Of a DNA stretch of 64,000 nucleotides, positions 58,267 through 58,717 are shown in pieces. The stretch comes from a phage. The DNA lies in sequence record PZ386966.1; one strand, 5' to 3'. The notes under the pieces were generated by a model. It was not told the DNA's origin and did no database searches. It worked only from the letters and a program-made list of their open reading frames with translations. Position 1 is the first letter of the stretch. The number at the start of each line of letters is the position of its first letter. The position numbers and the translations under genes were made by a program.

Positions 58267-58343
58267 CTCTGTTTAGCTCAGCTTGGTAGAGCGTTCCGTT
58301 TGGGGCGGTAAGGCCGGAGGTTCAAGTCCTCCAACAGAGACCA
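58267..58343 (+). tRNA. tRNA, anticodon probably UGG (Pro)
   Basis: 7-bp acceptor stem CTCTGTT/AACAGAG, D-arm AGCTCAGCTTGGTAGAGC, T-arm GGAGGTTCAAGTCCTCC, CCA encoded. Confidence 0.5.
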
Positions 58344-58360
58344 AATTTAAAGGGGTTACT

Positions 58361-58717
58361 ATGAGATTTTTAAAAGAATGTCCAGTTCATGGCTTAACTG
58401 AACATAGCATTCATAAGAATGGTAACGCCGGTAATAGAGTAAATTGTCTAAAATGTTGTGCATTAAGGACAAAACTTAGAGAGAATGCCAATAGAGAGAA
58501 AGCATATAAGCTTTATGGCGATAGTTGCAAAATTTGTGGCTATAATAAATGCAAAAATGCTTTAGAATGGCATCACCTTAACCCAAATGAAAAAGAGAAT
58601 ACACCATCAAAACTTATGGGTGCATCTTGGGAGAAGGTTAAAAAAGAACTTGATAAATGTGTTTTGCTATGTGCTAATTGCCACAGAGAGGTTCATAGTG
58701 GAATTACAATGATTTAA
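58361..58717 (+). CDS. HNH homing endonuclease within tRNA array
   Basis: ORF trimmed to Met after tRNA; ..LEWHHLNP..LLCANCHREVH HNH motifs. Confidence 0.65.
   Translation: MRFLKECPVHGLTEHSIHKNGNAGNRVNCLKCCALRTKLRENANREKAYKLYGDSCKICGYNKCKNALEWHHLNPNEKENTPSKLMGASWEKVKKELDKCVLLCANCHREVHSGITMI

Follow-up and report, generated by a model that had tools for sequence, protein, structure and literature searches.

A small HNH endonuclease gene between tRNA-Pro and tRNA-Glu of a Felix O1-like phage, probably a homing-type element expressed from the tRNA precursor

How does a nuclease gene come to lie directly behind a tRNA in a phage tRNA array, and how might it be expressed and maintained there? The question is raised by a gene for an HNH endonuclease in a stretch of 64,000 nucleotides of phage DNA (sequence record PZ386966.1), the whole of which is called the window here. 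The window derives from a myovirus of the Felix O1 type (Felixounavirus, Ounavirinae): a segment of 801 bases around the HNH locus matched 286 phage records and shares 98.9% identity with Escherichia phage nataliec. Twenty-four tRNAs, all on the plus strand, were predicted by ARAGORN between 58267 and 63556, and the tRNA array of the window comprises 25 tRNAs, beginning with tRNA-Pro(UGG). The locus is composed of the following parts.

58267-58343, plus strand: tRNA-Pro(UGG) with encoded CCA (ARAGORN; Rfam RF00005, 57.7 bits).
58344-58360, plus strand: leader of 17 nt, made up of the AU-rich trailer AAUUUAAA and then the Shine-Dalgarno sequence AAGGGG (read from the sequence).
58361-58717, plus strand: HNH (His-Me finger) endonuclease gene, an ORF of 357 nt encoding 118 amino acids (Pfam, PHROG).
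58719-58793, plus strand: tRNA-Glu(UUC) with encoded CCA and the anticodon loop CCUUCAA (Rfam tRNA, 55.4 bits).

A preliminary description of this DNA placed the ATG of the HNH gene 18 nt past the last base of tRNA-Pro, which was borne out by the 17-nt spacer at 58344-58360. The gene ends with TAA at 58715-58717 (stop context UAAU), and since tRNA-Glu begins only 1 nt past this stop, the HNH gene is wedged flush between the two tRNAs and fills the whole space between them. Both tRNAs are complete; the gene is thus intergenic, and it lies within neither an intron nor an intein. The tRNA-Glu had been overlooked in the preliminary description. ARAGORN gave no call for it in the window, and it was recognized by an Rfam match at 58719-58790, which is followed by CCA up to 58793. 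Its absence from the annotations of the nataliec and Meda records as well is a lesson for the annotation of such arrays.

The ORF listing begins the HNH frame further upstream, with a TTG at 58283, and gives a product of 144 amino acids (58283-58717) in the same frame as the ATG at 58361.

58283-58360, plus strand: spurious N-terminal extension of the ORF, 26 codons from a TTG start, running through tRNA-Pro (ORF listing, nataliec annotation).

This upstream frame was described as running through the 3' half of the tRNA; the overlap itself is real, but it covers 61 of the 77 tRNA bases. A true product of 144 amino acids, whose coding frame would really overlap tRNA-Pro, is suggested by the listing and by the GenBank record of nataliec, which annotates the same frame. 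Its probability is almost negligible, however. The 26 extra codons are the tRNA-Pro gene itself, which is identical in Felix O1 and is thus also present in phages without the HNH gene, so the extension is an artefact of ORF calling. No Shine-Dalgarno sequence was found before the TTG at 58283, whereas AAGGGG (58350-58355) lies 5 nt before the ATG at 58361. Homologues align from residues 1-7 of the 118-aa protein and begin at the equivalent of M1, and the ATG was used by the gene callers on 10 metagenome contigs and in the Meda record. A run of 26 stop-free codons is also expected by chance, arising in 14% of shuffles of local composition (p = 0.14). The earlier choice of the ATG at 58361 as the true start therefore stands, and at least one GenBank record (nataliec) carries an ORF of 144 amino acids that is mis-started inside a tRNA.

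The 118-aa protein was matched by PHROG 2255 'HNH endonuclease' (E = 1.5e-29, residues 5-116) and by Pfam HNH PF01844, the latter with a score of 23.0 bits that lies just above the curated cut-off of 21.4. Its motifs are C56xxC59, H71-H72 and C104-A-N106-C107-H108-x3-H112, and C56, C59, H71, H72, C104, N106, C107, H108 and H112 are invariant across the alignment of 7 homologues. The segment LCANCHREVH aligns to the HNH domain of McrA (6ghc). For the beta-beta-alpha-metal fold expected of such enzymes, a single-sequence AlphaFold2 model was too poor to use (mean pLDDT 52). Homing endonuclease genes of phages often degenerate, and this tendency, together with a Pfam score barely over the cut-off, could be taken to mean that an old insertion has left behind an inactive gene in decay, with no present function. 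Such a fate is very improbable here, because the ORF is intact in 13 of 13 copies, and because the catalytic His and Asn, the metal-binding His and the two CxxC zinc pairs are all present and conserved. Of the 16 variable sites among these copies, 14 are synonymous third-position changes and two are non-synonymous, which indicates that the gene is under purifying selection.

Comparison with relatives revealed how the gene is seated in the array. At the same place, Felix O1 and Citrobacter phage HP1 both read ACCA-AATTAAT-tRNA-Glu, and this HNH-less arrangement, tRNA-Pro-AATTAAT-tRNA-Glu, is found in about 283 of the 286 related GenBank phages; the HNH gene is therefore a precise insertion of 368 nt.

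58348-58715, plus strand: insertion of 368 nt relative to HNH-less relatives (alignment with Felix O1 and Citrobacter phage HP1).

Its ends can be shifted by 2 nt (TT), which makes 58346-58713 equally valid. The insertion splits AATTAAT, the canonical 7-nt spacer of the tRNA array, and at least the AA of the HNH stop codon derives from the old spacer. Only 3 of the 286 related GenBank records carry the gene, namely nataliec, Meda and vB_EcoM_DE7. The identical protein was also found in 48 blocks of public assemblies, and in all ten places shown (24 contigs read) it is located at the same tRNA-Pro/tRNA-Glu locus. Carriage of the gene does not follow the relatedness of the flanks: over 5-kb flanks the nearest relatives of the window lack HNH (ECML-1, 97.5%; finno, 97.4%), while the HNH-positive nataliec and Meda rank 14th-17th for the downstream flank and outside the top 40 for the upstream flank. 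Among carriers, the HNH gene diverges by 1.7-3.4% and the flanking vWFA gene by about 4-5%, a comparison in which the metagenome contigs had been chosen for an identical protein; the divergence of HNH is thus not clearly below that of vWFA and gives no clear sign of recent spread, and the sporadic scatter could stem from general mosaic recombination or from repeated loss. Other differences were seen in this part of the genome. Downstream of HNH, similar metagenome contigs of Felixounavirus differ in small ORFs of 57, 98, 113 [PDDEXK_5], 115, 130, 134 and 212 aa, so the tRNA array looks like a hot spot for variable insertions. Compared with nataliec, Meda and Felix O1, the window contains 26 inserted nt at 59364-59389, and from about 59980 onward it cannot be aligned with Felix O1.

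The most interesting addition to the preliminary description is the linkage of the nuclease gene to a particular allele of the adjacent tRNA, which was observed in four phage lineages. U is nearly universal at position 33 of tRNAs. The anticodon loop CCUUCAA of the tRNA-Glu(UUC) behind the HNH gene has a C at this position, and the anticodon arm also has a C27-U43 mismatch; the same arm occurs in HP1 (Mooglevirus). Over most of its length this tRNA-Glu departs from the allele of Felix O1, and it is almost identical to that of HP1 and about 95% identical to those of Erwinia phages (e.g. phiEa21-4), all of which lack HNH. The non-Felix allele is present in 14 of 14 HNH carriers (the window, the 3 GenBank phages and 10 of 10 metagenome contigs), and none of the HNH-less records with flanks at the Felixounavirus level was found to have it. 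Without HNH, the same allele occurs in other lineages of Ounavirinae, e.g. HP1, ESh21 and the Erwinia phages. A paper on anticodon-loop mutations of phage tRNAs makes no mention of tRNA-Glu, position 33 or Felix O1 (PMC10264068), and the call 'tRNA-??? (tt)' given by ARAGORN in phage ST-3, considered as a further instance of the odd tRNA-Glu, proved to be a different sequence.

Comparable exchanges accompany homologues of the HNH gene elsewhere. In Csp-D17 (Seunavirus), the only one of 273 records with the gene, an HNH protein of 57% identity is followed by a tRNA-Glu that was replaced relative to HNH-less sisters, both flanks being homologous. CR3 (Certrevirus), the single carrier phage among 120 records, has HNH together with a tRNA-Asn upstream that was replaced relative to CR8, and in the T5-like Kenya-K36 the HNH gene is accompanied by four changes in the T-arm of the upstream tRNA-Gly relative to falkor. 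Judging from these sequences, the swaps of adjacent tRNAs are consistent with co-conversion during homing, without proving it; a resistant allele kept beside the nuclease, or simple import from a donor lineage, would give the same pattern. Since the empty site of the HP1 type adjoins the same tRNA-Glu allele, the linkage could reflect the donor lineage and not immunity of the target. The Felix-type tRNA-Glu was considered as the cleavage target as well, a candidate weakened by the finding that the homologues of Csp-D17 and CR3 adjoin a Felix-like tRNA-Glu. It was also observed that, at 3456-3535 of its locus, CR3 has an extra tRNA-Glu(CUC) after its tRNA-Glu(UUC); CR8 lacks this extra tRNA, and its own tRNA-Glu(UUC), which is unannotated, differs little from the one of CR3 (1-nt indel).

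Residence in tRNA arrays is a general property of this protein family, which is represented in Ounavirinae, Vequintavirinae, Demerecviridae and Saclayvirus, and in many phages that are uncultured. The six GenBank homologues that were inspected are all found in tRNA arrays and are oriented like the tRNAs. Relatives in IMG/VR number more than 500. Among 80 IMG/VR loci encoding relatives, which include near-duplicates and hence are not independent, 62 have tRNAs within 1.5 kb; for comparison, about 13% of the tRNA-rich window lies within this distance of a tRNA. Nearly all of the tRNAs neighbouring the IMG/VR members are co-oriented with them (390 of 398). The stop codon abuts or overlaps the next tRNA in 30 of the 80 loci, its position ranging from 21 nt inside the tRNA to 38 nt before its 5' end; only stop-to-tRNA distances were used for these homologues, as the automatic choice of start codons is unreliable. 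The recurrent feature of the family is the flush 3' junction, rather than the 5' junction that was stressed in the preliminary description.

A paralogous HNH protein of 115 amino acids, Alf5_ORF045, is encoded by the phage vB_EcoM_Alf5 (38% identity over 86 aa, E = 5e-16). In Alf5, and by annotation in Felix O1, its gene is located between tRNA-Ile and tRNA-Ser on the same strand. It thus resembles the HNH gene of the window in genus, in belonging to the small-HNH family, in strand and in its place between tRNAs, but the slot differs. At the slot of the Alf5 gene (1530-2454 of the Alf5 locus, L102; 60054-60615 of the window), the window has a tRNA-Arg(UCU) at 60301-60377 and no HNH gene, and tblastn found no paralogue of the HNH protein within the window. 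Here too, variation in tRNA content goes along with a nuclease gene. Felix O1 was reported to have six HNH genes (PMC3185647), and HNH genes in phage tRNA clusters have been linked to the diversity of tRNA repertoires (PMC6409571). It is a tentative and rather doubtful extension that this family of about 120 aa specialises in phage tRNA arrays across unrelated phage families, that its members move as two-gene cassettes of a nuclease and an adjacent tRNA which overwrite the resident tRNA allele, and that it is a main driver of the turnover of phage tRNA repertoires and alleles, here spreading the C33 tRNA-Glu. If this were true, the C33 tRNA-Glu might matter for escape from host anticodon nucleases.

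How the gene is transcribed was addressed with a scan for sites resembling the sigma-70 consensus; phage-specific promoters unlike sigma-70 could escape such a scan. The following elements are predicted around the start of the array and of the HNH mRNA.

58120-58148, plus strand: predicted sigma-70-like promoter P1, TTGACA-17-TAATAT (consensus scan, 10/12 matches).
58211-58240, plus strand: predicted sigma-70-like promoter P2, TTGACA-18-TAAAGT, with an upstream TG (consensus scan, 10/12 matches).
58352-58429, plus strand: predicted mRNA hairpin over the Shine-Dalgarno sequence and AUG (fold of 58344-58440).

The predicted P2 ends 27 nt before tRNA-Pro, and its -10 part (58230 onward) is conserved among HNH-positive and HNH-negative relatives alike; it is the likely start of a transcript that would carry tRNA-Pro, HNH and tRNA-Glu. 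Further upstream, a 12-bp hairpin at 58112-58143 (AAAGGGTATTGACA...TAATACCCTTT) lies directly 3' of the vWFA/DUF2828 gene and holds the -35 hexamer of P1, so that a terminator-like structure and a promoter-like site overlap there.

The claim that the HNH gene is co-transcribed with tRNA-Pro, made in the preliminary description, is strongly supported by the anatomy of the locus: the gap is 17 nt, promoter-like sites are found only upstream, and the tRNAs are co-oriented. According to the Felix O1 genome paper, in which the promoter information consists of predictions, this phage encodes neither an RNA polymerase nor any apparent modifier of the promoter specificity of the host polymerase (PMC3185647). 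Based on the upstream-only promoter-like sites and the lack of a Felix O1 polymerase, the HNH mRNA almost certainly forms part of the tRNA precursor. The alternative is that HNH has its own promoter inside tRNA-Pro or the leader, with an mRNA 5' end that is independent of tRNA processing. Phage middle or late promoters may differ from the sigma-70 consensus and be missed by the scan, and the T5 tRNA region does hold many internal promoters between tRNAs. Nevertheless, such a promoter is rather improbable here: merely 17 nt separate the CCA from the ATG, the scan of 58241-58360 gave no plus-strand sigma-70-like site, and Felix O1 was reported to lack a polymerase as well as an apparent modifier of host promoter specificity. 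Moreover, any promoter inside tRNA-Pro would predate the insertion, since this tRNA is identical in HNH-less phages.

In E. coli, tRNAs are matured by processing of the RNase E type at the 3' side and by RNase P at the 5' side. The RNase E-like trailer AAUUUAAA after the CCA of tRNA-Pro is typical of the array, other tRNA trailers being similar, and the leader UUUAAU-G that precedes tRNA-Glu after the insertion likewise resembles those of other array tRNAs; the usual maturation is therefore to be expected, by cleavage of the RNase E type on the 3' side and by RNase P on the 5' side. The suggestion that the HNH mRNA undergoes tRNA-dependent processing is thus plausible by sequence and by analogy, given that the expected RNase P site is 1 nt away from the stop codon and that the trailer is AU-rich, and we infer that the mRNA would be either released or inactivated by it. 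Translation may be restrained as well. In the single-sequence fold of 58344-58440, 58352-58353 and 58355-58362 are predicted to pair with 58419-58426 and 58428-58429, and the predicted stability (-23.7 kcal/mol, z = -3.4) was reached by none of 200 shuffles. This hairpin could occlude the start of HNH translation.

Several known systems have a similar arrangement. The T4 gene segB has no promoter of its own, is transcribed within a tRNA precursor, was proposed to form a hairpin over its translation start, and its mRNA is cut at the stop codon during maturation of tRNA-Arg (Brok-Volchanskaya et al., 2008; PMC2330249). It is absent from the close relatives T2L, RB1 and RB3, and its homing carries neighbouring tRNA genes; the activity of SegB, its 27-bp site including the TpsiC motif, and the biased inheritance were all established by experiment (PMC2330249). 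The HNH gene of the window resembles segB in its location among tRNAs, the lack of a promoter, the predicted hairpin at the start, the stop codon at a tRNA processing site and the absence from relatives. It differs in that SegB is a GIY-YIG enzyme of 221 aa, whereas the window encodes a predicted HNH endonuclease of 118 aa.

Down-regulation through processing of the precursor was also proposed for the endonucleases of the T5 tRNA region (PMC2330249). The T5 genes hegA, hegC and hegD encode HNH proteins and start 17-23 nt after a tRNA on the strand of the tRNAs, as does the HNH gene of the window. The ends of hegC and hegD overlap the next tRNA, and the junctions of the three T5 genes with tRNAs are flush like those of the HNH gene, whose stop lies 1 nt before tRNA-Glu. 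The T5 proteins are larger (193-227 aa) and contain NUMOD-type domains. Akulenko and colleagues are said to have placed F-TflI, II and IV in the same T5 tRNA cluster in 2004. The window protein was examined as a possible orthologue of the heg proteins, but tblastn of the T5 tRNA region gave a motif-level match to hegA (E = 0.13); because the similarity is limited to the HNH motif, it is not an orthologue of them. True homologues (39-48% identity) are carried by the T5-like phages Kenya-K36 and 2-3. A broader parallel is offered by the E. coli operon thrU-tyrU-glyT-thrT-tufB and by the tRNA punctuation of mitochondria, in which mRNAs are co-transcribed with tRNAs and their ends are set by tRNA-processing nucleases. 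Those are housekeeping genes fixed in their genomes, in contrast to the HNH gene of the window, which is a sporadic mobile insertion. The T4 segB and T5 heg genes are thus the direct precedents, and the HNH gene is an ordinary new example.

The observed anatomy, the sporadic but precise insertion, the linkage to the tRNA-Glu allele, the purifying selection and the residence of the family in tRNA arrays are best explained by a free-standing mobile gene for an HNH homing-type endonuclease, which occupies the tRNA-Pro/tRNA-Glu spacer, relies on the tRNA precursor for its transcription, is kept at low expression and homes together with the tRNA-Glu allele. We assign this reading a probability of about 80%. 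For transcript structure, processing, cleavage target and homing itself, we infer the following course. The element itself is minimal, with a ribosome-binding site and an ORF in 368 nt, neither promoter nor terminator, and at least part of its stop codon taken from the old spacer. Host-type promoters upstream of tRNA-Pro would drive a tRNA precursor that includes HNH, and translation would begin at the ATG at 58361. Maturation of the flanking tRNAs would cut just past the CCA of tRNA-Pro (RNase E type) and 1 nt past the stop (RNase P). This may free an mRNA with a leader of 16 nt and 1 nt beyond the stop or, alternatively, ruin the usefulness of the mRNA, and through processing, combined with the hairpin at the start of translation, little nuclease would be made. 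Its probable target is the tRNA-Pro/tRNA-Glu region in related HNH-less phages, where repair after the cut would copy the HNH gene plus the neighbouring, presumably resistant, tRNA-Glu allele.

Whether the phage itself gains from the gene is a further consideration. The nuclease may be kept mainly for the benefit of the phage, either because it excludes or degrades relatives that infect the same cell or because it spreads a useful variant of tRNA-Glu, which is compatible with homing. Purifying selection would fit such a benefit, as would the recurrence of the exact protein in the 48 assembly blocks, always at the same locus in the places read, the linkage to a distinct allele of tRNA-Glu whose anticodon loop has the unusual C33, and the precedent of SegB, which promotes preferential inheritance of the tRNA genes of T4. 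We nevertheless consider benefit to the phage as the main reason unlikely, since about 99% of the sequenced relatives do without HNH, which speaks against a strong benefit, and since any functional difference of the C33 tRNA-Glu is conjectural.

Several other features were observed in the tRNA region. Two genes of PHROG 2143 and PHROG 2114 (61639-62196 and 62639-63382; function unassigned in PHROG) are also wedged flush between tRNAs, and the leaders of both (CCA-ATTTAAAGAGG..ATG) resemble that of HNH. The PHROG 2114 gene ends with TAA-T just before tRNA-Ser, as HNH does before tRNA-Glu, and the ORF listing gives it a false GTG start at 62585, inside tRNA-Phe, the same artefact as at the HNH gene. 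A repeated inter-tRNA element that starts with CAGAAGACCNNTTACAGCAA is located at 58798-58876, 58965-59034 and 59447-59528, and the 5' half of a fourth copy at 59539-59558. Its outer stem of 4 bp is followed by an AGA/G bulge and by an inner stem of 7 bp around 45-55 nt. Both stems covary between copies (UGAC/GUCA, UUAC/GUAA, GAGC/GCUC and UUGC/GCAA; also CAA/UUG vs CGU/ACG), and exact complements were found in 36 of 41 distinct instances from the window and 31 IMG/VR stretches, mostly from contigs with lengths of about 85-90 kb. In three of the four window copies the first bases are TTGACA or TTTACA, and no Rfam match was obtained for the element. A small stable RNA, of the sort annotated among the T5 tRNAs, is one possible identity, and a promoter-linked site is another. 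The 457 nt that separate tRNA-Asp from tRNA-Lys contain a weak tRNA-like match at 59555-59619 (Rfam tRNA, 24.7 bits, under the gathering score of 29), possibly a degenerate tRNA.

The principle was already established by T4 SegB and the T5 endonucleases, and the current understanding is therefore unchanged by this locus. Felix O1-like phages are used for the typing of Salmonella and in biocontrol, so that variable nuclease cassettes in their tRNA region give rise to differences between strains and to recombination among phages applied together. The locus itself offers a clean natural case of a selfish nuclease gene, reduced to a minimum, that lives inside a tRNA operon and would borrow from it the promoter, the tRNA-processing sites and even the stop codon, and it illustrates how such nuclease genes can carry tRNA alleles between phages.
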